Shown: positions 1 through 11,939 of the stretch, piece by piece | Numbering within the stretch: the stretch's first letter is position 1 | Layout: every line of letters begins with the position of its first letter | Virus record (IMG/VR): IMGVR_UViG_2737471852_000002 | Span: 1 to 51,736 of that record | Reading direction: 5' to 3' (one strand) | Source: a virus | Taxonomy: Duplodnaviria; Heunggongvirae; Uroviricota; Caudoviricetes | Length of the DNA: 51,736 nt | The notes under the pieces: model-generated | Databases searched by the model: none | Told to the model about the DNA's origin: nothing | Seen by the model: the letters and a program-made list of their open reading frames with translations, nothing else | Translations under genes and position numbers: made by a program

Positions 1-789
1 TCAATATCTCTTATTAGGGTTTATTGAGTACTTTTTAAGCTTTGAAGCTACCCGACCAGCGTTACTGTTAGCATTGGTGACGTTGGTTTTTTCAGCTTCT
101 GTTAAGTCTGAATAATCCAGCTTCCAAGCCTTATTACATTTAATCTGAGCATCGAGAATATCATTTCTGATAGCTGGAGCGTAACCGGATACATCGCTAA
201 TATTCATTAATTCTTTGCACGATAGCATAGGCGCGTTATTGCGTTCAGTGGTCACGTTACCTGCATTCTTCTTACTGGTCACACCACCATCATTTGTGGT
301 AGCCGTTTTGCCAGTGGCTGCTGAAATATCAGTTTGCCCTACAATAACCTTAAAGTTGATTTCCTGAAAAGTTAGCTGGATTCTTAAGCCGTTTGAAATA
401 CCAACATCTTTAGAGGCTTTAAAACTAGTAATAATGGAATCGTCAATCTTAATCCCGTCTTTACAAATTACCGAAATAATCTGCTTCTGGTCACGCCAGT
501 TTTCAAGGGTGTCGATGAAGTTTTCTACTAATTGACCCTGACGAGTTAGTAATAAACTTCCTTCATAACCAACTACAACGACACCACTAATAGTGATTGT
601 TCTGGGTGCTCTTTGAACATTATCTGTGACGGTTTGCCCTGATTGCATGTTCTGTGTAGTTACCTGCATAGGACTATCAAATTCCATGTTTTCAGTTGCT
701 GATAAGGTTAAGAAGGCATCTACATTATCTCTTAAGTGGAAATAGATGCCATCTTTGCCACTGTAACGAATCTGATTAGAGTAAATCAT
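1..789 (-). CDS. phage tail-associated protein (possible distal tail protein) of the AT-rich module
   Basis: 262-aa ORF immediately downstream of the tape-measure-like gene on the same strand; AAGGAG 6 nt upstream of ATG at 789; no catalytic motif recognised. Confidence 0.4.
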
Positions 790-864
790 TAAATTCTCCT
801 TTGATTTCAAAGGCTTAGTGTATTTTAATCATTTTTAACCAAGCCTTTGATATATAAGTATTTT

Positions 865-904
865 CTCTGTTAAGCGTGAGCTACGTAAAAAATAATTTTT
901 GGTG
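865..904. repeat. 40-bp perfect direct repeat, copy 1 (second copy at 3138-3177)
   Basis: ctctgttaagcgtgagctacgtaaaaaataatttttggtg is identical at both positions; both copies are followed by ttcacgtag about 20 bp later. Confidence 0.85.
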
Positions 905-945
905 TGGGTATTAACTTTGCTTTATTCACGTAGAACACCGTTAAA

Positions 946-3123
946 TCAATCATCTTCTGGGAATGATGAACTTAATAGCGTAGCTTCTGCATATTGGTCG
1001 TAGATATTACTGCTAAAGGTCATAAAGCTGGTTTCATCTGGTTTAATGGCAACTTCACCACCAAGTGAAACTTTCACAGGCTCCTGAATACGTTTGCTCA
1101 AAGCACTAATTTCATCTCTCAGACTCTGAATATCTGCGCTGGTTAATGCTGAATCTTGCTTAATGTTGTTTAACTCTGGATGATTGAATCTTGCAATATT
1201 CATTGTGGCATTGTTAAACAATTCACCCATTGAACTAAAAATTTTATTCCATCCTTCGTTAATCATATTCGGTTTATTAGGGTCACCAGAATACACAGGA
1301 TTAAAGTCACTACCCACACCTACCCCAGATGGATGCATATTAGCGTTTTTGACTACTTCCTGATTCATAAAATCCAGTGCTTTCTTCAATGCATATAAAC
1401 CAAGAGTGACGCCTCTGATTTGTGGAATCATTGAAGCTAATGCTAACGCTGTTTCATAACCGTCATCAGCATAACCGATTGCAAGAGCACTACCTACACC
1501 ACCAGCTACACCTTTCAGTTTTCCACCACCTTTACCAGTAGCTACCTGACCAGCCACCTGATTAGCTCTTGTACCTAACGTTGTGATTGCTCTTGTCAGG
1601 TTCATAACCCCTGTAGTAGCACTGAATAGTGTCTTTGCAGATAACGCTATAGCAAGACCTTTGACAAAATTGATAAAACCATCACCGACTTCATCAAGTA
1701 GTTTTCGTTTAGTGTCATCAAGGCTGTAATAGAGCTGCTTAACCTGTAAAATCCAGCCTTCAATGTGATTGTTAAAGATACGGATGTCATCTACACCAGC
1801 TTTAAGCATGTCGATAAGTCCACCGATAGCATCACCAGCGATAGAAGAACTCATCCCCATTTCACTAAGCAGGTTACTCAGGCTGGATAAGAAGCCGTTT
1901 AGCTCATCCTGTGAACCTGAGAAGATTTTCACCATCGTGTCATCCCAGTTGTTTGCTAACTTACCTAAAGCTGTCTGGGTGCTCTTAGCGACTTCAGCCC
2001 AGCCACCCGCTTTATCAATCATCAAGCCCATCTGTTTAGCGACTTTAGGAAGAGTATCAGCGGAAAGAATCTTCCCGTCTTTCATCGCTTTATCAAGCTC
2101 TGTAGCAGTCATACCCAATGCTTCAGCGAACAGCTTAAATGCACCAGCCATACGGTCACCTAGCTGACCACGTAATTCCTCAGCCTGAATCTTGCCCTTA
2201 GAAGCCATCTGCTCAAAAGCTTTCAAAATGCCGTTTAGCTCGTCGTTAGAAAGCCCCATTAAGCGACTCATAGCCGTTGCATTACCAAATAGCTCCTGTG
2301 TCTGTTCCTGTGACATAGAACCCTGAGCACCTGCTGCAAACTTAGCGTAGCTTGATAGTCCTTCAGAGATATTAAGACCTGTCTTGTCTGCTAGATTTCG
2401 AATAAATACCTCAGCCTCAGAGGCTTTATCACCAAGTACAAACTTAGCGGCTCTCTGTGCGGAATCTCGTTTAAGACCTGCATTCATAATGGCCTTGTAA
2501 GCGTTAAGAGCACCCATCACAGAGTAAAATGCACCAGATAACTTAATTGCATTGCTTGCAAGATTATTAAATGCGTCGCTTGTATTACTAATGCTGGTGG
2601 ATGTATGACCTCTGGCTTTAGCAATTGCTTCTCGGACTGAAGAATTTAACTGAGCCAACTTCTCATTGAATTTTGAATTATCCATCTGACCAGCTTTAGC
2701 AGATAGCCCGTAAAACTGAGATTTGATGTATTTCTGCAAAATAGGGTCAAAGCCTTTTAGCTTGCTCATATTCGCTGAGTAAGCTGCTGTGATTGCTCTG
2801 TTTCCGCTAATTCGTGGCTGTCTTGGTTGTTTTGGAGGATTAACAGTGTCATTAAATCTGGTGGCAAACTGAAATGCTCTTGTGTTTCTTGCTCTCTGTT
2901 CAATCTTGTCAAAGGTCTTATTAAACTTCCTTTCAAGTTGCCCTAAAGAACTTGTCAGATTACTGTCAAGTTGCTTGGTATCGACCTTAAACGCTCTATT
3001 CAAATTACGTTCAATTCTTTGTGCTGACTGCAAAGCTGCCTTTTCAACTCTTTGCAAGCCCTTAATAACGCTCTCGCTGAAGCCTAGCTCAACGATAAAA
3101 CTATCAACTTTAAATTGTGCCAT
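946..3123 (-). CDS. tail tape measure-like protein (AT-rich module)
   Basis: 725-aa ORF, long helical and coiled-coil-like N-terminal half, glycine-rich hydrophobic segments (GKGGGKLKGVAGGVGSALAIGY), followed by a tail-protein-like gene; GAGGTG RBS before ATG at 3123. Confidence 0.55.
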   Translation of the reverse strand: MAQFKVDSFIVELGFSESVIKGLQRVEKAALQSAQRIERNLNRAFKVDTKQLDSNLTSSLGQLERKFNKTFDKIEQRARNTRAFQFATRFNDTVNPPKQPRQPRISGNRAITAAYSANMSKLKGFDPILQKYIKSQFYGLSAKAGQMDNSKFNEKLAQLNSSVREAIAKARGHTSTSISNTSDAFNNLASNAIKLSGAFYSVMGALNAYKAIMNAGLKRDSAQRAAKFVLGDKASEAEVFIRNLADKTGLNISEGLSSYAKFAAGAQGSMSQEQTQELFGNATAMSRLMGLSNDELNGILKAFEQMASKGKIQAEELRGQLGDRMAGAFKLFAEALGMTATELDKAMKDGKILSADTLPKVAKQMGLMIDKAGGWAEVAKSTQTALGKLANNWDDTMVKIFSGSQDELNGFLSSLSNLLSEMGMSSSIAGDAIGGLIDMLKAGVDDIRIFNNHIEGWILQVKQLYYSLDDTKRKLLDEVGDGFINFVKGLAIALSAKTLFSATTGVMNLTRAITTLGTRANQVAGQVATGKGGGKLKGVAGGVGSALAIGYADDGYETALALASMIPQIRGVTLGLYALKKALDFMNQEVVKNANMHPSGVGVGSDFNPVYSGDPNKPNMINEGWNKIFSSMGELFNNATMNIARFNHPELNNIKQDSALTSADIQSLRDEISALSKRIQEPVKVSLGGEVAIKPDETSFMTFSSNIYDQYAEATLLSSSFPEDD

Positions 3124-3137
3124 TGTTCATATTTCAC

Positions 3138-3177
3138 CTCTGTTAAGCGTGAGCTACGTAAAAAATAATTTTTGGTG
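3138..3177. repeat. 40-bp perfect direct repeat, copy 2
   Basis: identical to 865-904; lies 15 bp upstream of the tape-measure-like gene start. Confidence 0.85.
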
Positions 3178-3330
3178 GGTATATCTGTTCAGAAGATTTC
3201 ACGTAGCACATAGGATTCGATAGAAGACTATCTCATATACAAAAAAGGGAGAAACTACCGAATAATATCGATAATCTCTCCCCGTGTTATAGATTCGATA
3301 GAACCTATCTCATACACCCAACCAATTCTT

Positions 3331-3546
3331 TTAATGCATGACAAGATAATGTAGTTCCGTTTCACCTATGATTTGAGCATCAGAAGGAATACGGTCGATA
3401 CACCATTTTGGAATCTTGCGTGTTTTTGGTTTGCGTGAGGTGATAATTTGATGTTTGGTTTTAATTCTTAAGGCTGGCTTAGTTTGTAACTTTAAGTTTT
3501 CACAAACAGACTTAATAGTTTCATAGCGTTCTGTTAAATCAATCAT
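3331..3546 (-). CDS. hypothetical basic small protein
   Basis: 71-aa ORF, lysine/arginine-rich; no family recognised. Confidence 0.25.
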   Translation of the reverse strand: MIDLTERYETIKSVCENLKLQTKPALRIKTKHQIITSRKPKTRKIPKWCIDRIPSDAQIIGETELHYLVMH

Positions 3547-3569
3547 TAATCACCTCACATATTGCATAA

Positions 3570-4274
3570 TCAAACAGCCTTGCTAAATTCTCGTGGAACA
3601 CTCAGAAAATCATTGAAGCTGATAATCTGTGCCAACTCTTGACGGTACTCCTTAGCCAGCGCTTGATGGTCACTAATCAGCTTAGCCAGTCTTGATTTCA
3701 GTAAATTAATCTCATTTTCTCTTGCTTTCATCAGTTTCTCTTTGGCAATTTCTTCAAGCTCAGCTTGTGATTTATCAGCAACAATTAGAGACAGTCGATG
3801 TGGCGCTCTAATGGCTCTTTCTGTACGAACAACTCTTTGACCTTCTGGTAAATCTGCAATCACTTTACCAATCTCTACAGGGTCATACCCCCAACCGTCA
3901 CGGTCTAGTCGAGAGAAATAAGCATAAGGATTGGTTTGAAGCTCCATCAAAATAGCCATTTCGTCAATTTCGTCTTCAAGCTTGGACTGAATTTTCTCGT
4001 AAACACTTCTCATTGCTTCTTGAGAGTCTTTAATAGCTTGGAAATATCGGCGTTGTAGCTTCAACTTCAAATCAAGTTCACACCGTTCGTTCATAGAAAA
4101 ATCAATTTCAACTCTTGGAATCTCGAGTGGTTCTGGTGGAATATATGGACCTTTATTTACTTCGTGTGATTCCCGCCAAGCTCTATCAAAAGATTCACGC
4201 AAACTTAATTCGTGAATATCAAGTGCACTTGGTCGGCTTTCAATAATCATTTCATTTTCATCACGGATAGCCAT
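3570..4274 (-). CDS. hypothetical protein
   Basis: 234-aa ORF in the AT-rich module; charged and helical; no family recognised. Confidence 0.35.
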   Translation of the reverse strand: MAIRDENEMIIESRPSALDIHELSLRESFDRAWRESHEVNKGPYIPPEPLEIPRVEIDFSMNERCELDLKLKLQRRYFQAIKDSQEAMRSVYEKIQSKLEDEIDEMAILMELQTNPYAYFSRLDRDGWGYDPVEIGKVIADLPEGQRVVRTERAIRAPHRLSLIVADKSQAELEEIAKEKLMKARENEINLLKSRLAKLISDHQALAKEYRQELAQIISFNDFLSVPREFSKAV

Positions 4275-4762
4275 TAATACCTTTCCTCTTCTAAGATAAT
4301 TTATGTTTCAGTTTTTAAAAAGCACACCTGACATCCTCGAACTTAGAAGAGGCTTAAAAGGCGTTTGCCAAGTATGCTTTTTAAAAACTGAATAGCCCTA
4401 GATAATTTCTTATAAAGGGCCATTCATAAGGTGAAGAAATTAAAACATCTAAAGGATTCAAACGAATGAACAAAGACTTTTCGAGATGACCTCTCAGGTT
4501 GTATAAGAGGCCATGTAGCGAAAAGCATTGCACCTTTCAGAATGTTCGGTATAGAACATACCTCACCAACTCAGAATATCCATCCATCGGATTATTGAAA
4601 GAAATAAGAGAGAAATTCTCTCTATAATTAAAATTATGTCATGCTTAAGGTTATTTGTCAACAGCTTTTTAACAGATTGGTAACATTAATTCTTATTTAC
4701 CGTATTACCTACCCAGCAACCAACAAATAGCCCTAGCAACGTCCAAGCAATTATTAAACCCA

Positions 4763-5086
4763 TTAGTGAATCCTCACAGAATCCGTCACCAGAATATTGT
4801 CAGCGTACAGGATTGTCACAGCACCTTTCAAAAATTGCTCTGGGGAAATACTGTATTTATTCGTTTGCTCGATAACCAATCTTTTCATGCTGCTGTCTGC
4901 AATTGGTAGCATCATTCGAGGCTCGTTAAACTCCACCGACTGAATAAAGTCAGAGATGTTTTCTGCATTATCGGCCATCAGCTTTAACAGCCTGTCAAAA
5001 TCAATTGTCACACCTGCATCAGTGAAGCTTTGCACCATCATAGCGGTGTCGCTATCAACGAAAATCTGTAGCGGGAAGTTGTTCAT
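4763..5086 (-). CDS. hypothetical protein
   Basis: 107-aa ORF; no family recognised. Confidence 0.35.
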   Translation of the reverse strand: MNNFPLQIFVDSDTAMMVQSFTDAGVTIDFDRLLKLMADNAENISDFIQSVEFNEPRMMLPIADSSMKRLVIEQTNKYSISPEQFLKGAVTILYADNILVTDSVRIH

Positions 5087-5108
5087 TTCTTAAAATCTCC
5101 TTTTTACC

Positions 5109-5240
5109 AGACCTCCTCAATCGCTCTGTAACGAGCTAAACAGTCTTTTTCAGGGGTAGCCTGTACAGTGGTATTACCCACCCTAAAATAAGATAGTTTT
5201 TTGCGTTAGAATGCGATTGAGAGCGTCTGAGAAGCTGTTT
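5109..5240 (+). repeat. about 120-nt repeated element, copy B1 (paralogue at 6796-6905)
   Basis: shared 5' block agacctcYtcaatcgctctgtaacgagYtaaa and 3' block ttgYgtYagaatgcgRttgagRgcgtct; ctcaatcgc / gcgattgag can pair as a long-range stem. Confidence 0.5.
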
Positions 5241-5242
5241 TT

Positions 5243-5530
5243 CTAATTTCTCTTAAAGTCTCGGACTTGCATAAGATTTTTTGGTCTGGTATCGGCTCTG
5301 TTACCATTTCGATGGATAATTTGCTTATTGGATTGATAGCCATGATAAAGGAACCAGACAACATATTTCACATAGAATGTGTATCGACCTATATTAAATG
5401 TTTTGTTGCCGTAGTCGTCGGTATTTATCGTGACTGACCCCCCATCAGACCAGCACAGGGAATCACTGGATTCATCATAGATAAGGTGTTCTGCAAAATA
5501 TCTTCTAACATCTTCATGCCAAGGTTTCAT
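5243..5530 (-). CDS. HNH endonuclease (small HNH_3-type)
   Basis: 95-aa ORF with GYxxN...IHRNGNRADTRPKNL resembling the H-N-G ... DNR ... NL core of phage HNH nucleases; last gene of a 4-gene overlapping operon. Confidence 0.5.
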   Translation of the reverse strand: MKPWHEDVRRYFAEHLIYDESSDSLCWSDGGSVTINTDDYGNKTFNIGRYTFYVKYVVWFLYHGYQSNKQIIHRNGNRADTRPKNLMQVRDFKRN

Positions 5531-5742
5531 AAAACCTCCTCACCCCAATAACCTAATTCAATCTTATGACGTTCAAACCATTCCGGTTTAACTGCTGTTT
5601 TCAGTGTTTCATTTGGGCCAATGGCTTTAATGAAAATATCTTTTGAGTTATGGATGTCACCGAATCCGTTTCCTTTAATCAGGAGGTCGGAGATGTAGCG
5701 AATCATTTTATCTGTGTGGTATTCAAAGGTAACGCATAGCAT
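5527..5742 (-). CDS. hypothetical protein, translationally coupled to the HNH gene
   Basis: 71-aa ORF; its stop overlaps the HNH start by 4 nt. Confidence 0.35.
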   Translation of the reverse strand: MLCVTFEYHTDKMIRYISDLLIKGNGFGDIHNSKDIFIKAIGPNETLKTAVKPEWFERHKIELGYWGEEVL

Positions 5743-6020
5743 CAGACCTCCAGAGACAGTTTGCGAATCTTGATGCTCAATAGACGGGCAATATCAATTT
5801 TAAAGCTGTTAAGTGCCTTCAAAGTATCTAAAGCGTCCGTAGTAATTCGGATGTGCTTACGACCTTTAGAGACTGGATATTTAAGTAAATCCGACTCAGT
5901 GACTTCTTTAGCGATTGCAAGTTGCATAACAGTTTGATGAGGCAAGTTAGTCGCTCGTTTAATTCTGGTAAGCTCGTTAAAAGCTTCCTCTGAAATACGG
6001 GTTAATGTGTGTTTATTCAT
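5742..6020 (-). CDS. hypothetical protein (possible small DNA-binding protein)
   Basis: 92-aa ORF abutting both neighbours; basic and helical. Confidence 0.35.
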   Translation of the reverse strand: MNKHTLTRISEEAFNELTRIKRATNLPHQTVMQLAIAKEVTESDLLKYPVSKGRKHIRITTDALDTLKALNSFKIDIARLLSIKIRKLSLEV

Positions 6021-6021
6021 T

Positions 6022-6579
6022 TTAAAATTCCTCTGTAACTAAATACGGGTCAAACTCGAAATCTGGTTGCTCGTTTTCCATTGGCTCAATATTCCCAACG
6101 GCAACATGATGTTCAACAATACCAATTAGCTTTGCACACATTACAGCAAGCAATGCACAATATTTATCGCTTGGTAATTCATAACTAAGTCTGGTTGCTT
6201 GTCGCTGAAGATAATTTGTCACGGTAGCTGAGTTAATTTCATCAAGATTCTTTAGAATATAAAATAGCTTTCTGTTGTATTTTGGGTGACCTTCGCTTCT
6301 GCAAAATCCGATAATTACATCTTCAAACTTGCGTGATAATTGCTCGTAAGAATCAACGTTAGCCAAATAATTTTTGATGCTGTTCTGGGTGCTCTTTCTG
6401 GTTGACATATAACGACTCCTCGGTGTAATTGCCCGAATTACTTCGTCAATGCCTTTGCGTTCTGCTCTGGTGAACTTGGGTACTTCGTGGCTGGTGGGGT
6501 TGTTTGTGTAAGCGTAGGAGTTGTGCTTGTTGCGTTCTCTCGATGCCTGAAGCATCGCTCTAAATTCTCTGTCGTTCAT
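6022..6579 (-). CDS. hypothetical protein, first gene of the 4-gene operon
   Basis: 185-aa ORF; the 6022/6020 junction and tight packing indicate co-transcription. Confidence 0.4.
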   Translation of the reverse strand: MNDREFRAMLQASRERNKHNSYAYTNNPTSHEVPKFTRAERKGIDEVIRAITPRSRYMSTRKSTQNSIKNYLANVDSYEQLSRKFEDVIIGFCRSEGHPKYNRKLFYILKNLDEINSATVTNYLQRQATRLSYELPSDKYCALLAVMCAKLIGIVEHHVAVGNIEPMENEQPDFEFDPYLVTEEF

Positions 6580-6663
6580 TCATAAGCTAGTCCTTATAAT
6601 TGTTAATTCTCTGTTAACTTATATAGACAATACTAGCATTTTCAAAGACTAATGTCAAGCATT

Positions 6664-6696
6664 TTTTAACATTTCATTAACATCTGTGGTATAATG
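6664..6696 (+). promoter_or_regulatory. predicted sigma70 promoter with extended -10
   Basis: TTAACA, 18-bp spacer ending in TG, then TATAAT (tgtggtataatggg). Confidence 0.4.
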
Positions 6697-6795
6697 GGTT
6701 TATGGGGAGAGTAAAATATGAGGCGTGGCTATGAGGTTTATTCGATAAACCGAATCAACTATGAGAGTGGTCACATGGTTATTGCATTGCACACA

Positions 6796-6905
6796 GACCT
6801 CTTCAATCGCTCTGTAACGAGTTAAATGGCCTCTTCAGGTCAACTCATAAGGTCAGGTACTTTTTTGTGTCAGAATGCGGTTGAGGGCGTCTCACAAGGA
6901 AATTT
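6796..6905 (+). repeat. about 120-nt repeated element, copy B2
   Basis: paralogue of 5109-5240; the two changes within the candidate stem (gcggttgag vs gcgattgag) convert A-U pairs to G-U wobble pairs when read on the + strand. Confidence 0.5.
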
Positions 6906-6906
6906 A

Positions 6907-7083
6907 ATGGTAAATCTCCCTCCTGAACTGGGGTCACCTGATGTATGGGCTGGTGGAGGTATTGGACTTATTGCAGGTCTGCTACTTCGTTACGTCCTTG
7001 TCAGAGTGCTTGTTGTCTTTAAACTGTTCGGTCGTACATGGACGCTTGACCTTAAGGATAACGACCATACAGAACCCCGCTAA
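6907..7083 (+). CDS. possible small membrane protein
   Basis: 58-aa ORF with AAGGA RBS and a hydrophobic core (GGGIGLIAGLLLRYVLVRVLVVF), downstream of the promoter at 6664-6696 and element B2. Confidence 0.25.
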   Translation: MVNLPPELGSPDVWAGGGIGLIAGLLLRYVLVRVLVVFKLFGRTWTLDLKDNDHTEPR

Positions 7084-7200
7084 ACTCCCTTCAAAACCCC
7101 CTGTACGTGATGGTATAGGGGTATCTTTAGCATTTTGTGCTATCTATTAAAAAATAGCTTGACAGAACAGGAAAGCTGTATCTATCAAGCATTCACCTCT

Positions 7201-7385
7201 CTGACAGTAATTTCTAAAAGTTCTTATTTTTCAATAAGTTGTAATTAGCCATATATAGAGAACTGACAAGTCTCTTCACAGTTAACTCTGTAACCTTAAC
7301 AGTAACTTCTAAAAATACTTATTTTTCAATGAGTTGTAATCACCCAATATATAAGACTGTCCAGTACCTTCACAGATAACTTCAA
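7201..7385. repeat. imperfect tandem duplication of about 90 bp
   Basis: acagtaaYttctaaaaRtNcttatttttcaatRagttgtaat ... cttcacag occurs twice head to tail. Confidence 0.6.
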
Positions 7386-8472
7386 GCCTTCTTAGCTATC
7401 CACTAAGCGGGAGAAGAGCGACACCCAAGAAAGGGAAGCTCCCTTCTTAACCGACCTTCTTAACCAGCCCTTTACGTTATTCGTTCACAGTGTTGATAAG
7501 TGGTTTTGCCCTCTGTTTCTGTTATCATCGGGCTTACCTTATCAGGGCTTTGAAATGTCCCTGTAACTTCCCTCTTAACGGGAGAGAAAGAACATAGTGA
7601 CCCCAAGCGAAGCGCCCCTCTAAAAGATTTTTTAGCTATTTTGTTTAAAAACATATCAAACGATACATTTTATTGATTTAGGTCAAAGACAAAAGCATTG
7701 ACAAAATGGTATGATTGTTCACATAGCCCTCTCTTAACAGACTTTTTAAGAGCTTTTGAGAAGTTTGTTAAACAGACACTCTTTCTGGAGTGTTGTCTTT
7801 TACTTAAGAGGCTTGTTTAGGTAACTCTCAAGACATTTCTTAAGACTTCACTGTTAAGATAGAACCTACCTTCGGTTTCATGGTTCTCTTCCTCCCGTTA
7901 AACAGTTCTTCCTAGCAACTTCATAGTTCTCTGTCAAGTATCTTTGAAGATTCTATCAAAACCCTCTAAATCTGACCTGATATAGATGCTGTGAAGGCAT
8001 GTTCTCTAGGTCTGTGTAGCTCACTAAGCGAGAGAGGGGATATGGTGACCATAGGGGAACCCCTCCTACTTAAAAGAACTATTTGATATTATTGTGATGG
8101 TTGTTTAAGATGCAACTGTGCAGACACCTTAACGGTTTCTCTACACCCCTTATAGTCTGGCGAGGTAGGGTACGGCTAGGTAGGGTGTGGTTGGGTCTGG
8201 TATGGGTGGATTGTCGTAGCCACGTTAAAAATCGACTTGTAAAGGGACTCTTTCGGGAGTCCTTTTTAGTTTGTATAAAATCTGTACAGTAACTTTTCAG
8301 ATTCTGAAAATTTTTATAAAAAATAATCAGGCCTCTTCTAAGTCTCTTCAACCAAATCTTTCAAAAATATCACAAGACTATGTATACCTGCTAAGTACCC
8401 GTCACTACGCCTAAGTGGTCCCCTTTGCAAAAAAGCCAAATATCAGTCACATCCATGTAACTATTCAGTAAC

Positions 8473-9021
8473 TTATTTAGCAAGTCTGTAATAAGTTGCT
8501 CTAGAGATTCCTAACTCTTCCTGAATCTGCAACCTCGTTTTACCTTGTGAAATAAGCATCTTTACAGTCTCTGAAGAAGCTTTTACGGGTCTCCCCATGT
8601 GAACCCCTTCAGCTTTAGCACGTTCAATACCAGCCTTTCTACGTTCACTGATAAGGTCTTTTTCAAGGTCAGCTAAACCAGCCATCATAGTAAGCATTGC
8701 TCTACCGATTGGTGTTAATAAGTCGAAACCTTCACGCAAAGAAACAACTCTCACACCTTTAGACTGTAGTGACTCCACGTTAGAGAGCACATCAACGGTA
8801 TTACGCCCTAAACGGTCAATAGCTACCACAACTAACGTATCGTCACACCTTACATAGTTCATCATGTCTCTAAAACCATCTCTGCTGGTGGCCTTTGTAG
8901 TTCCTGAGACAGCCTCATCAATAAACCATTTATCGACCTTGTGAACCTTCTCTATCTGTAGTTTCTGGTTGTCTACAGTCTGGTCTTGTGTTGATACCCT
9001 GCAATAACCAATCACCGCCAT
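8473..9021 (-). CDS. small serine recombinase (resolvase/invertase family)
   Basis: 182 aa; N-terminal VIGYCRVSTQDQ with catalytic Ser context, C-terminal HTH (RLQIQEELGISRATYYRLAK). Confidence 0.85.
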   Translation of the reverse strand: MAVIGYCRVSTQDQTVDNQKLQIEKVHKVDKWFIDEAVSGTTKATSRDGFRDMMNYVRCDDTLVVVAIDRLGRNTVDVLSNVESLQSKGVRVVSLREGFDLLTPIGRAMLTMMAGLADLEKDLISERRKAGIERAKAEGVHMGRPVKASSETVKMLISQGKTRLQIQEELGISRATYYRLAK

Positions 9022-9032
9022 ACATCCCCCTT

Positions 9033-9160
9033 AGAAGTCTCAAAAGTTAGTCTCATAAGTTTAGCTGTCTCATAATCCAAAAACAACCTTTTGAGACTAC
9101 TTGAGGGTGCATTCTACCGTTACGTTGAAAGTGTCTCAAAAGGAAGTCCTTTTAAGACTG
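9033..9160. promoter_or_regulatory. cluster of direct and inverted GTCTCA(A/T)AAG motifs; candidate res/crossover site
   Basis: motif at about 9037, 9051, 9068, 9131 and inverted at about 9088 and 9149; 9133-9158 forms a 26-bp palindrome gtctcaaaag-gaagtc-cttttaagac; directly upstream of the recombinase gene. Confidence 0.4.
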
Positions 9161-9802
9161 GTTATGAAGGAGCTATGAGGTTGATTCCTAGAACTAACCG
9201 AATCAACTATAACCATCACCTCCTAATATTCACGTAGGAAATCGTTAAGGGTTTTATAGTTACACCATGTGACCAACTGCATGAATAGCGTTATATACTC
9301 CTGTATATAGCACTTTTCTAGGAGTCGAGAGAGGAACGACTAACACGATACAGTTTACCCTGAAAAGAGACTTCACAGATTCTCTATATATTTCAATAAG
9401 TTATGCTAAAAAGAGACTATACCGATACTGTATAGAATCTGTGTAAAACTGCTTAGATACTTGGGAAAATGCCTTTAAATTGCATAATCATAGGGGTTGG
9501 AACAAGCCCAACTACACCTGATAAAGCCTGTTATTAACAGGTCTCTTAGAAAACCGAATAGACTTCATTCAAGGGTCATTGAAGTCATAATCATTTCAGT
9601 AGAAAAACCAGGTCTCGATTTTAAATGCAAATAGCAATCATATTCAATAAGGCAAGACGATCAGGATCAGTGAAAATGTCATTTTTGGCGTAATTACCCT
9701 TACTTTATGCATGGCCTCAACAAAGACATCATCTTTCCGTTGCAGATCTTCGCCCTTTCAAATAACGTACTTTACAACTTTCCCGAACAAGGAGTTGTGC
9801 CC

Positions 9803-10099
9803 GTGTTGTATGTTATTTACGCTCAAGACAAAGCTGATAGCCTCGAAAAACGCCTTTCCGTTCGTCCGGCACATTTAGCACGTTTACAGTTACTGCATGA
9901 TGAAGGTCGTTTGTTGACAGCTGGTCCAATGCCAGCGGTAGACAGTAACGATCCAGGGGCTGCGGGATTTACTGGCTCAACCGTTATTGCTGAATTTGAA
10001 TCGCTGGAAGCAGCTCAGGCCTGGGCCGATGCTGACCCGTACGTAGCGGCAGGAGTCTATGAACACGTTTCAGTGAAACCATTTAAGAAAGTGTTCTAA
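9803..10099 (+). CDS. YciI-like (Dabb-fold) small protein
   Basis: about 99 aa from a GTG 8 nt after AAGGAG; [21 protein letters not shown] and C-terminal [17 protein letters not shown] resemble the YciI family; GC content host-like. Confidence 0.5.
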
Positions 10100-10217
10100 T
10101 TTATTAGAAATTTGCACTTAAATCAAAAAGTTACGGACAATTCAACCACCAATCAATAAATTAAAGGGCACATTAAAGTACACAATATTTGTGCCCTTCT
10201 CTGTTTCTTTCCCGTTA

Positions 10218-10766
10218 TCAGCTAGCTGGAAACTTTTTATACAGAGTTGAGAGCCCTACTCCATACGTTTTTGATACGCTTTGTCGTGATTCACCGGTTG
10301 CCATCCGCTCCCCCATTTCCCGCCATTGCTCATCCGTGAACTTAGGCCTGCGACCACCAACTCGCCCTTTTGCCCTGGCTACGGCCAGCCCTGCTAAGGT
10401 ACGTTCGCTATTAAGATCAGATTCATATTGTGCTGCGGAAAGGATGTTACGAAAGTTATAGCGGCCGCTGGCTGTTTTGAGATCCACGCCATCGGTAATA
10501 CTGCGGAAGTTGATACCCTTTTCCTGTAACTGCTGGAACATCAACAGCGCATGCAGAACGTTGCGGCCTATCCTGTCCAGCTTCCAGACCACCAGTTCAT
10601 CCCCCGGCTGCATAGTGGCGATCAGCCGTTTTAGAACCGGCCGATTCGATTTCCTCCCGCTGGCATGCTCTTCAAAAATTTTCTCACAACCCGCTGACTT
10701 GAGCGCCGTTAGTTGCAATTCAGTGTCCTGGTGGTTTGTTGATACTCGGGCATAACCGTAAATCAT
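10218..10766 (-). CDS. pin: Pin/Gin/Hin-family DNA invertase (serine recombinase)
   Basis: MIYGYARVSTNHQD N-terminus, resolvase catalytic domain and C-terminal HTH; AGGAGA RBS; immediately beside the invertible tail-fibre segment. Confidence 0.9.
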   Translation of the reverse strand: MIYGYARVSTNHQDTELQLTALKSAGCEKIFEEHASGRKSNRPVLKRLIATMQPGDELVVWKLDRIGRNVLHALLMFQQLQEKGINFRSITDGVDLKTASGRYNFRNILSAAQYESDLNSERTLAGLAVARAKGRVGGRRPKFTDEQWREMGERMATGESRQSVSKTYGVGLSTLYKKFPAS

Positions 10767-10825
10767 GGGATTTCTCCTGTTATGAAAACAGGAGAAACGG
10801 CGAAGCATCACCAGATTTTTGATGG

Positions 10826-10851
10826 TTATAAAAAAGGTTGGTTTGGGAGAA
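10826..10851. other. 26-bp invertase crossover site (hix/gix-like), left
   Basis: TTATAAAAAAGG-TT-GGTTTGGGAGAA; one half-site is the reverse complement of TTCTCCCAAACC, close to the gix/hix half-sites as I recall them. Confidence 0.7.
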
Positions 10852-11334
10852 GGTTCGGCATTACCCGTTGGCGTGCCTGTTCCGTGGCCTTCCGCCACTC
10901 CGCCAACAGGCTGGCTGAAATGCAACGGGGCGGCTTTTTCTGCTGAAGAATACCCGGAACTGGCAAAGGTTTACCCGACAAATAAATTGCCTGATTTACG
11001 CGGTGAGTTTATTCGTGGCTGGGATGATGGAAGAGGGATTGATACTAACCGTAGCTTGCTTTCGTCACAGGGAGATACCATTCGGAATATAACAGGCTTT
11101 ATAAATGAAGTTAAAGGCACCATTGATACAGCAACTTTCAGGTTACAGACTGGTACTGGTGCTTTTGCCTTAGCATCTCAAGCTACGCGAAATATCTATA
11201 ATAACCTAGGCACATATGAAACAAAAAATACCCCTTACACAGGATTCAGTTTTGATGCATCCAGGGTTGTACCAACAGCATCAGAGAATCGCCCTCGAAA
11301 CATTGCATTTAACTATATCGTGAGAGCAGCATAA
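10852..11334 (+). CDS. alternative tail-fibre C-terminal cassette, currently in the unexpressed orientation
   Basis: begins at the crossover with ...GLGEGSALPVGVPVPWP...GWLKCNGAAFS...YPELAKVYP...DLRGEFIRGWDDGRG, the classic variable C-terminal domain of Mu S / lambda Stf-type fibres; no start codon of its own. Confidence 0.7.
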   Translation, partial: GSALPVGVPVPWPSATPPTGWLKCNGAAFSAEEYPELAKVYPTNKLPDLRGEFIRGWDDGRGIDTNRSLLSSQGDTIRNITGFINEVKGTIDTATFRLQTGTGAFALASQATRNIYNNLGTYETKNTPYTGFSFDASRVVPTASENRPRNIAFNYIVRAA

Positions 11335-11939
11335 TGGATAAAGCAATATTAAATAGTGAGCTTATTGCTACAAAGTCGGGGGATATTACCGTTTATAACT
11401 ATGATAGTGAGACGCAGGAATATATTTCAGCTTCAACTGAATATCTTGCCATTGGTGTCGGTATTCCTGCATATTCCTGTTTAGATGCCCCTGGCACATA
11501 TAAGGTGGGTTATGCTATCTGTCGTTCTGCAAATTTTAACTCATGGGAATATGTGCCAGACCATCGCGGTGAAATCGTCTATAGCACCAAAACTGGAGAG
11601 TCAAAAGAAATCACAGCTCCGGGTGATTACCCTGAAAATACCACAACTATCGCCCCGTTAACACCATACGATAAATGGGATGGTGAGAAATGGGTGACCG
11701 ATACTGAGGCACAGCATAGCGCCGCAGTAGACACGGCAGAAGCACAGCGTCAGTCACTGATTGATGCTGCAATGGCTTCCATCAGTCTGATTCAGCTGAA
11801 ATTACAGGCCGGACGGAAGCTGATGCAGGCAGAAACAACCCGGCTTAACGCCGTGCTGGATTACATTGACGCGGTGACGGCAACAGATACCAGCACCGCG
11901 CCTGATATTATTTGGCCTGCTTTCCCTGAGACTGATTAA
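11334..11939 (+). CDS. tail fibre assembly protein (Tfa/U-type) paired with the alternative cassette
   Basis: 201 aa, ATG overlaps the cassette stop; C-terminal LQAGRKL ... LDYIDAV ... WPAFPE typical of Tfa proteins. Confidence 0.75.
   Translation: MDKAILNSELIATKSGDITVYNYDSETQEYISASTEYLAIGVGIPAYSCLDAPGTYKVGYAICRSANFNSWEYVPDHRGEIVYSTKTGESKEITAPGDYPENTTTIAPLTPYDKWDGEKWVTDTEAQHSAAVDTAEAQRQSLIDAAMASISLIQLKLQAGRKLMQAETTRLNAVLDYIDAVTATDTSTAPDIIWPAFPETD

Follow-up and report, generated by a model that had tools for sequence, protein, structure and literature searches.

A tonB-inserted integrative island that is probably a satellite of Felix O1-type phages

Why would a stretch of DNA that holds one tailed phage carry two tape measure genes? 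The question is raised by IMG/VR record IMGVR_UViG_2737471852_000002, in which an AT-rich segment with its own tape measure gene lies to the left of a prophage. The whole stretch of 51,736 nucleotides (nt) is called the window here; all coordinates are positions in it, and the island described below is numbered in the same frame. A preliminary description had reasoned that two tape measure genes are too many for one phage, and our results agree: the second gene belongs to a separate element. Window positions 1–9581 make up most of an integrative island of ~11 kb, an element in its own right and not a part of the neighbouring prophage. We consider it probable that this island is a satellite of virulent Felix O1-type myoviruses (Ounavirinae), with a lifestyle like that of the PLE satellites of Vibrio cholerae. 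Among the identities offered earlier, only the satellite-like one survives; an accessory arm of the prophage is excluded, a phage-plasmid is unsupported and a phage remnant is unlikely.

An integrative island in tonB, separate from the prophage

The composition of the window breaks sharply. In 1-kb windows the GC content is 0.37–0.45 over 1–9500 and 0.44–0.59 over 12500–51000, mostly 0.50–0.59 in the prophage, and the overall value is 39.4% for 1–9568 versus 52.0% for the prophage part (10200–51736). The two parts do not share a composition (tetranucleotide r = 0.06). The break reported earlier for an AT-rich first ~9 kb is thus real, and a distinct element does lie there. Its proposed extent has to be revised at both ends: the right end, placed at 9230, is at 9568–9581, and position 1 is not the left end, since the island continues past the left edge of the window.

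The YciI-like gene had been suspected to mark a boundary, and it does. Positions 9569–10100 are 99.6% identical to the tonB-yciI region of E. coli K-12, and the match breaks off after 11 nt of the tonB reading frame at one end and reaches the yciI stop codon at the other. Beyond yciI, to the right, lies the prophage of a temperate myovirus that is 96% identical to Citrobacter phage Omnitron. In two related genomes, NZ_AP025214 and NZ_CP075665, an island of ~11.3 kb lies between tonB and yciI, and kch follows yciI directly with no prophage there. An accessory arm of the prophage would adjoin it, as this region does in the window. However, core host genes intervene and the island occurs alone in other genomes, which excludes an accessory arm. 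The island is therefore an element separate from the Omnitron-like prophage.

Comparison with related genomes also defined the attachment sites. The attR core, CAATGACCCTTGA, lies at 9569–9581 on the minus strand and contains the tonB start codon, with the native tonB promoter and then yciI to its right; it was located by K-12 homology and comparison of junctions. Comparison of attL, attR and attB shows that this 13-bp core, present as a single copy in K-12, is duplicated, with one copy at each island end (junctions of the window and of one related genome). In the reconstructed attP the arms are inverted, CCGAATAG…CTATTCGG, as fits a large serine recombinase site.

The integrase gene of NZ_AP025214 and NZ_CP075665 adjoins tonB and encodes a 506-aa protein with Resolvase, Recombinase and Zn-ribbon domains; the integrase of relative L001 has the domains Resolvase, Recombinase and Zn_ribbon_recom. 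Position 1 of the window is exactly the stop codon of the last island gene preceding the integrase in the relatives, so the integrase gene and attL fall outside the window. Both attL and a large serine recombinase were found in relatives L001, L006, L007, L008 and L030. By inference from these relatives, a large serine recombinase encoded just left of the window would insert the island into the first tonB codons. The integrase beyond the window, the position within the tonB start and the tie to Felix O1-type phages are points that go beyond the preliminary description.

The insertion separates tonB from its native Fur-controlled promoter (9569–9700). At the junction in the window, this promoter reads into ATG ACC CTT GAA TGA and then the island, that is, into a four-codon stub (MTLE*). 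At the far island end the tonB reading frame is rebuilt behind island DNA; in L001 (18360–18450) it is preceded by TTGATT-N17-TTATAA and a 13/19 match to a Fur box. This Fur-box-like match is only suggestive, as the 13/19 level is reached in 3.6% of 100-nt windows of the island.

To describe the distribution of the island, we searched for relatives of positions 1–9500 and found them in ~550 of 5426 complete E. coli genomes, at 81–93% identity and in a mosaic pattern. All 814 matching places in E. coli genomes are chromosomal. Other islands are inserted within yecE (L007), between dinB and lafU (L008), or beside wrbA in Salmonella enterica (L030), each alternative site coming with its own large serine recombinase allele, and the family occupies at least four insertion sites. 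Homologues of island proteins occur in Shigella, E. albertii, Citrobacter and Salmonella, and a scan of species-representative genomes with a narrow, pattern-based method returned one E. albertii locus only. Matches to the island in IMG/VR were prophage-adjacent chromosomal pieces and uninformative. In Shigella sonnei contigs L026–L029 the island is located in yecE, and its gene o4 (described below) is truncated where the contig ends, the presumed cause being an insertion sequence (IS). Short island-length Shigella contigs were considered as excised circles and rejected, because they are IS-truncated chromosomal copies.

The family core set consists of the tube initiator, the tape measure protein (TMP), o3, o4, usually o5, and o8. 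Variable components are the o9 module or an alternative with a 306–313-aa protein, HNH or AP2-type endonucleases, and a small serine recombinase or a Dam methylase. In two sibling islands, a Dam-type adenine methylase is fused to a resolvase-type HTH_7 domain (L007, 12026–12688; L030, 8447–9115) and is encoded at or near the position of the small recombinase. The pairwise ratio of nonsynonymous to synonymous substitution rates (dN/dS) of seven genes is 0.03–0.53, indicating purifying selection on working genes, not a decaying prophage. The only virion or packaging genes of the window island encode the TMP and the tube initiator; Pfam and PHROGs scans revealed no capsid, portal, terminase, sheath or tube gene among the island open reading frames (ORFs).

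Tail genes and non-coding DNA shared with Felix O1-type phages

The island resembles Felix O1 in composition, with a GC content of 39.4% compared to 39.0% for the phage. Its tetranucleotide correlation is 0.91 with Felix O1 and 0.3–0.45 with E. coli core DNA. Only three island genes have homologues in Felix O1, encoding the TMP, the Dit-like tube initiator and an HNH endonuclease.

The tail-like gene that had been noted downstream of the tape measure gene encodes the tube initiator (1–789, minus strand; 262 aa from the ATG at 789, the ORF reaching a TTG at 810, 1–810). It matches Pfam Dit_like (3.6e-20) and PDB entry 9ndy, “tube initiator gp018” (E 1.9e-114). Over 510 nt (256–765), the gene is 93% identical to Felixounavirus genomes. 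The N-terminal domain is 85–98% identical to phage gp18 (~96% at the amino acid level). The last ~80 residues are only 37–41% identical to those of any of 168 phages and 88–99% identical among four of the five islands. Judged from these alignments, the tube initiator is a sharp chimera, with a phage-like tube domain at its N-terminus and an island-specific C-terminal part of ~80 aa. Its dN/dS is 0.03–0.24.

The island does carry its own tape measure gene (946–3123, minus strand), which encodes a 725-aa protein matching TMP_3 (1.8e-22) and phrog_4036 (6e-96). This TMP forms an island-specific lineage, and none of the phage TMPs exceeds 60% identity to it. Compared to the Felix O1 TMP, the first 81 residues are 45% identical, with the first ~45 near-identical, and the centre is 38% identical; the LLSSSxPE motif at the extreme C-terminus is kept. 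The dN/dS of the TMP gene is 0.25–0.35. In the Felixounavirus Bas63, the tube initiator gp18 and the C-terminal end of the TMP gp17 form the hub complex together with the hub and the spike (PMC12609058). The Bas63 tube initiator has a tube-like body and a C-terminal extension of ~100 aa that spans the baseplate (PMC12609058). Since the two proteins are neighbours in this hub, the island keeps exactly the two hub-associated proteins. The conserved anchor motifs of the TMP and of the C-terminal extension, together with purifying selection, argue for assembly-competent proteins.

The two tail genes are in the same order as in the phage, where they abut, but the island has a box with the core ACGTAGCTCACGCTTAACAGAG before each. 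This box, D2, lies at 865–911 (minus strand) before the tube initiator gene and is a 47-nt direct repeat, 94% identical to its second copy at 3138–3184 (minus strand), directly upstream of the TMP start. The copy before the tube initiator gene is present in all five islands compared, and neither the D2 nor the D4 boxes were found in Felix O1. Box D2 is a candidate promoter or regulator site. An intrinsic-terminator-like hairpin at 3246–3283 (minus strand), with a stem of 16 pairs and a T run after it, would keep the tail genes insulated from the operon that precedes them.

The third homologue is a 95-aa HNH_3 endonuclease (5243–5530, minus strand; Pfam HNH_3, 1.8e-8), which is 25–29% identical to the HNH genes of Felix O1. 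It is the last gene of the o9 operon, whose four ORFs run from 6579 down to 5243; the HNH-terminated operon recognized earlier is therefore correctly drawn.

The ties extend to non-coding DNA. At 8155–8270 (plus strand) lies a phage-type intergenic element with about eight GGTNN repeats, then GTAGCCACGTTAAAAAT, then a hairpin. It is 75–88% identical to non-coding repeats near the DNA ligase gene of 121 Ounavirinae phages (nhmmer E 5e-11). CTTAAAAG was considered as a motif common to phage regulatory DNA and rejected, as it is not enriched.

The adjacent block at 8272–8440 (minus strand) is homologous to the Felixounavirus sequence across the inner boundary of the left direct terminal repeat. 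In whole or in part, it is kept in all five islands irrespective of where they are inserted, at full length in four and as the first ~100 nt only in L007. A terminase of the direct-terminal-repeat packaging type must act at this boundary. A profile built from island sequences alone gives a single match in the 86-kb Felix O1 genome (13294–13457, E 9e-12) and also matches phages vB_EcoM_E9 (535–693, E 3e-13) and humlepung (E 3e-14). The vB_EcoM_E9 record has identical 580-bp ends, so the island block straddles the boundary at 580/581, around which the bases GG-TAC--AGCAG-TATACAT are conserved; direct terminal repeats have been reported for E9 and another Felixounavirus (PMC11737134, PMC8303462). 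We read the block as a candidate packaging or cleavage signal, a putative terminase recognition and cleavage (pac-like) site. A 544-bp identity between a virulent coliphage and prophage-less E. coli chromosomes has been reported previously, the element not being recognized (PMC11069274).

One possible explanation of these homologies is that the island is what decay has left of a temperate phage, once complete and related to the Felix O1 type. The phage-like composition, the two tail genes in phage order and an HNH type common in these phages would fit. However, the four or more insertion sites share one compact gene set of ~10–12 kb, which is found in ~10% of E. coli genomes as well as in Salmonella, and further structural genes are kept by no member. 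Most island genes lack a Felix O1 homologue, every tested gene is under purifying selection, and genes that adjoin each other in the phage are set apart in the island by promoter-like boxes and a terminator. A remnant is thus very unlikely.

A putative replicon module, a probable resolution system and the case for a satellite

The genes upstream of the HNH gene, o7 (71 aa), o8 (92 aa) and o9 (185 aa, with an acidic C-terminus), occupy 5527–6579 on the minus strand and are a putative replicon or regulatory module. At the o9 position, sibling islands encode an O/DnaD-like protein with HTH_36 and matches to phrog_270, phrog_8102 and phrog_678 (“replication initiation”). The segment 5100–8270, comprising genes and a repeat-rich arm, is exchanged as one unit between islands, as expected of an initiator together with its origin. 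Within the 1.9-kb non-coding arm, a 95-bp tandem repeat of 1.9 copies (7204–7381; Tandem Repeats Finder score 254) is kept in the islands sharing the o9 module, and its repeats are candidate origin iterons. The o9 protein itself belongs to an orphan family in E. coli, Shigella and Salmonella; an exhaustive profile search returned this family only, with two distant matches lacking an informative domain. Both o9 (6022–6579) and the alternative initiator-like protein (L007, 10742–11662) have acidic C-termini with D-P-F/Y motifs, which are reminiscent of the interaction tails of the single-stranded DNA-binding protein (SSB) type.

A small serine recombinase of the resolvase/invertase type is encoded at 8473–9021 (minus strand; 182 aa; Resolvase 1.7e-41 and HTH_7; phrog_125). 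Site-like repeats had been noticed beside it, and they form a res-like site at 9037–9158, with six GTCTCAWAAG half-sites arranged > > > < ... > < and a 12-2-12 dyad at 9133–9158. Six of the 11 half-site matches in the window, including all four exact ones, fall within these 122 bp. The dyad is the part of the array farthest from the recombinase gene; the layout is res-like as a sequence pattern. A promoter-like site (9139–9111) lies within the array. The resolvase visible in the window is thus probably an enzyme of resolution and does not serve as the integrase; such a system would suit an island with a circular, replicating form.

A resolvase/res pair and an initiator-like module are also typical of plasmids, and a plasmid-type element had been considered earlier. 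A plasmid-like or conjugatively mobilized integrative element with incidental tail cargo could explain both features. Yet island DNA was found in none of the 72,556 plasmid records of PLSDB, in which only the tonB flank matched, and Pfam and NCBIfam scans showed no relaxase or mating genes among the island ORFs. Nor are the tail genes incidental, as they belong to the family core and are under selection. Taken together with the accessory-arm idea, such an origin is the most improbable of the alternatives, and we give it hardly any credence.

Direct support exists for the separateness from the prophage, the att sites, the spread of the family, the purifying selection and the sequence homology to phages, in coding and non-coding DNA alike. 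An integrase, a putative replicon of its own, a probable resolution system, a candidate helper-like packaging signal and two helper-fitting tail proteins together fit a satellite-like parasite best. From these we infer induction, replication, packaging, a role of the tail proteins, helper dependence and transfer.

We then propose a mechanistic model. Upon infection by a helper phage, the island would excise and replicate from its own swappable initiator/origin module (o9 and the repeat-rich 6.8–8.2 kb arm), and the small serine recombinase would resolve island multimers at the res-like site. The helper terminase may recognize the island through its copy of the terminal-repeat-boundary sequence of the phage. 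Meanwhile, the island would make its own TMP and tube initiator, two proteins of the helper baseplate hub. Since the helper-contact surfaces (the tube-like domain and both termini of the TMP) are kept while the proteins are island-specific elsewhere, they probably enter helper tails. There they could tailor particles that carry the island, spoil those of the phage, or both.

It is tempting to extend the model. The island would then stand for a satellite family that is widespread in E. coli and Salmonella and is the first one for virulent phages of the Felix O1 type. Such a satellite would swap in its own TMP and tube initiator so that particles carry satellite-specified ejection or “pilot” proteins, would be packaged by mimicry of the terminal-repeat boundary and would rewire the tonB promoter as a side effect. 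This combined proposal is tentative, and we regard it as possible but somewhat doubtful as a whole.

Several points weigh against a satellite. Excision, replication, packaging and transfer are drawn from sequence, not from experiments or reads, and the integrase and attL are placed beyond the window by inference from relatives that are only ~90% identical. No gene for capsid size control or terminase redirection was recognized in the island, and six island proteins have no detectable function, both AlphaFold2 (AF2) models being poor. The absence of the D2 box from Felix O1 leaves phage-dependent expression of the tail genes unproven, and two strong sigma-70 promoters suggest some phage-independent expression. 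The block at 8272–8440 could instead be a promoter, terminator or origin sequence, and the island showed no homologue of the second terminal-repeat boundary; only one boundary was matched. Finally, phages were searched for nucleases that carry an initiator domain of the island, in the manner of ICP1 Odn, and had none; nor did any phage gene resemble an anti-satellite nuclease aimed at this island.

The main rival explanation takes up some of these points. The island may be a fixed or rarely mobile anti-phage defence island that is not packaged, its TMP and tube initiator acting as dominant-negative decoys that poison the tail assembly of Felix O1-type phages. Tail-assembly interference is a known defence strategy (PMC11364771), and a chimeric tube initiator that keeps a helper-identical assembly domain but alters the baseplate-spanning arm would suit such a role, as would strong host-type promoters and the lack of capsid or terminase genes. 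On the other hand, the terminal anchor motifs of the C-terminal extension and of the TMP are kept, which fits functional rather than crippled proteins. The island has no meaningful PADLOC match, and defence alone leaves the terminal-repeat-boundary homologue, the replication initiator and the resolvase/res modules unexplained. We consider this explanation unlikely, though it deserves more weight than a remnant or a plasmid-like element.

As a satellite, the island resembles PLE in features of lifestyle. Both are small islands (11 kb here, ~18 kb for PLE) with a large serine recombinase as integrase, a link to virulent myoviruses, a modular initiator/origin, endonuclease-derived genes and repeat-rich non-coding regions. 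However, no sequence homology or shared genes were detected, and the island has no RepA_N match: o9 belongs to an orphan family, and its counterpart in sibling islands is of the HTH_36/O-like type. Tape measure and tube-initiator genes are not known from PLE, whose helper dependence is demonstrated, whereas that of the island is proposed here.

Other putative satellites with TMP and baseplate genes have been described in E. coli by Barth, Dunham and Seed, who link them to Justusliebigvirus phages (Inny, Muut, Mt1B1_P17) (PMC10055350). Like the island, these elements are chromosomal in E. coli, have a TMP and one baseplate component without most tail genes, are linked to virulent myoviruses and show replicon modularity, with a serine recombinase in some (PMC10055350). 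They differ in carrying major capsid and decoration genes, RepA_N and mostly tyrosine integrases beside tRNA genes, and in having phi92-like helpers (PMC10055350). The island has no capsid gene, its family relies on large serine recombinases that act at protein-gene sites, and its ties are to Ounavirinae; the two are set apart here by their descriptions.

P4-like elements, PICI and cfPICI are likewise small and integrative with an incomplete set of virion genes, and depend on a helper phage as the island would, but they use tyrosine integrases and temperate helpers. Their markers psu, delta, sid, alpA, pri-rep, terS and capsid were not found in the island by Pfam, PHROGs and NCBIfam scans. The recombinase and its res-like site resemble the Tn3/gamma-delta resolvase-res system, with a small HTH_7-containing serine recombinase, upstream direct and inverted half-sites and the dyad subsite farthest from the gene. 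In contrast to Tn3/gamma-delta, the island lacks a transposase and would resolve multimers rather than transposition cointegrates; its subsites are assigned by pattern only. Relative to gp17 and gp18 of Felix O1 and Bas63, the island tail genes share the gene order, the near-identical tube-like N-domain and the conserved TMP termini, and differ in the TMP centre (38%), the C-terminal extension (37–41%), the regulatory DNA between the genes and their location in a bacterial island.

The island is best described as a new family within a known kind, the phage satellites. Subscription-only papers aside, we found no description of this family in the full-text literature. Felix O1-type phages are in wide use for typing Salmonella, for biocontrol and for therapy. 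Host range and treatment outcome would be affected if they were parasitized or blocked by an island present in one in ten E. coli strains and in some Salmonella. To our knowledge, the well-studied satellites of strictly virulent phages are essentially only PLE in Vibrio, and a tractable satellite of E. coli and Salmonella would widen the field. Its tool kit would be a different one, with replacement of the tail core instead of capsid remodelling and a mimic of the terminal-repeat boundary. More generally, a second tape measure gene beside a prophage can flag an independent element overlooked by standard prophage finders.

Remaining genes, promoters and neighbouring DNA

All listed island genes except the ORF at 6826–7083 are on the minus strand. 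Upstream of the tape measure gene, o3 (3331–3546, minus strand; 71 aa) is present in all five islands and has no family matches. The next gene, o4 (3570–4274, minus strand), encodes a 234-aa, all-helical coiled-coil core protein that is also present in all five islands, in two allele types, with homologues only in E. coli, Shigella and Citrobacter. Its AF2 model, with a predicted local distance difference test (pLDDT) score of 55, contains long helices at residues 60–114 and 170–224. Fold searches with the AF2 models of o4 (pLDDT 55) and o9 (pLDDT 42) were abandoned because the models are too poor, and sequence searches of the PDB with both proteins gave no matches. The island protein o5 (4763–5086, minus strand) has 107 aa. 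NCBIfam and PADLOC scans added nothing past the obvious matches, PADLOC giving no meaningful match to known defence families, and Rfam and tRNA scans of 1–10300 had no matches.

A strong promoter of the sigma-70 type is predicted at 4633–4661 (minus strand; TTGACA-17-CATAAT with TG, 11/12) and is preceded by TGTTAA repeats 11 bp apart. The same repeat architecture is found at 6630–6683 and in sibling islands, so that it heads both operons. A long leader separates the 4661 promoter from the start codon of o4; in it, an inverted repeat (I3) forms a hairpin with a 27-bp stem (4307–4392, minus strand; 89% complementary) just upstream of the o4 ribosome-binding site. Back-to-back promoters are predicted at 6630–6695, one on the minus strand for o9 (6658–6630) and one on the plus strand for the non-coding arm (6666–6695), scoring 10/12 and 11/12 and with an extended -10 TG.

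The plus-strand ORF at 6826–7083 may encode a small membrane protein of 85 aa with one hydrophobic helix and is followed by a terminator-like hairpin (7098–7121). It is a candidate coding sequence, with 79–84% amino acid conservation in L001 and L006.

The unusually long intergenic regions of the preliminary description, laden with repeats, are present as described. The non-coding stretches 6580–8472, 9022–9568 and 4275–4762 contain the tandem repeat, boxes, several hairpins and also two pairs of 42–47-nt direct repeats. One 42-nt direct repeat, 86% identical between its copies at 5108–5149 (upstream of o5) and 6794–6835 (in the arm past the o9 promoter), is kept in the sibling islands. At the right end, a terminal non-coding block (9205–9486) is 84–95% identical in L006, L007 and L008, whatever the insertion site.

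The Omnitron-like prophage (10100–51736) begins directly behind the stop codon of yciI, which leaves this gene with a mobile element on either side. Near the left end of the prophage, a Pin/Gin-type invertase ORF (10218–10925, minus strand) overlaps the start of tail-fibre-like ORFs (10819–11939, plus strand). The region 10218–11939 is probably an invertible host-range segment of the prophage.

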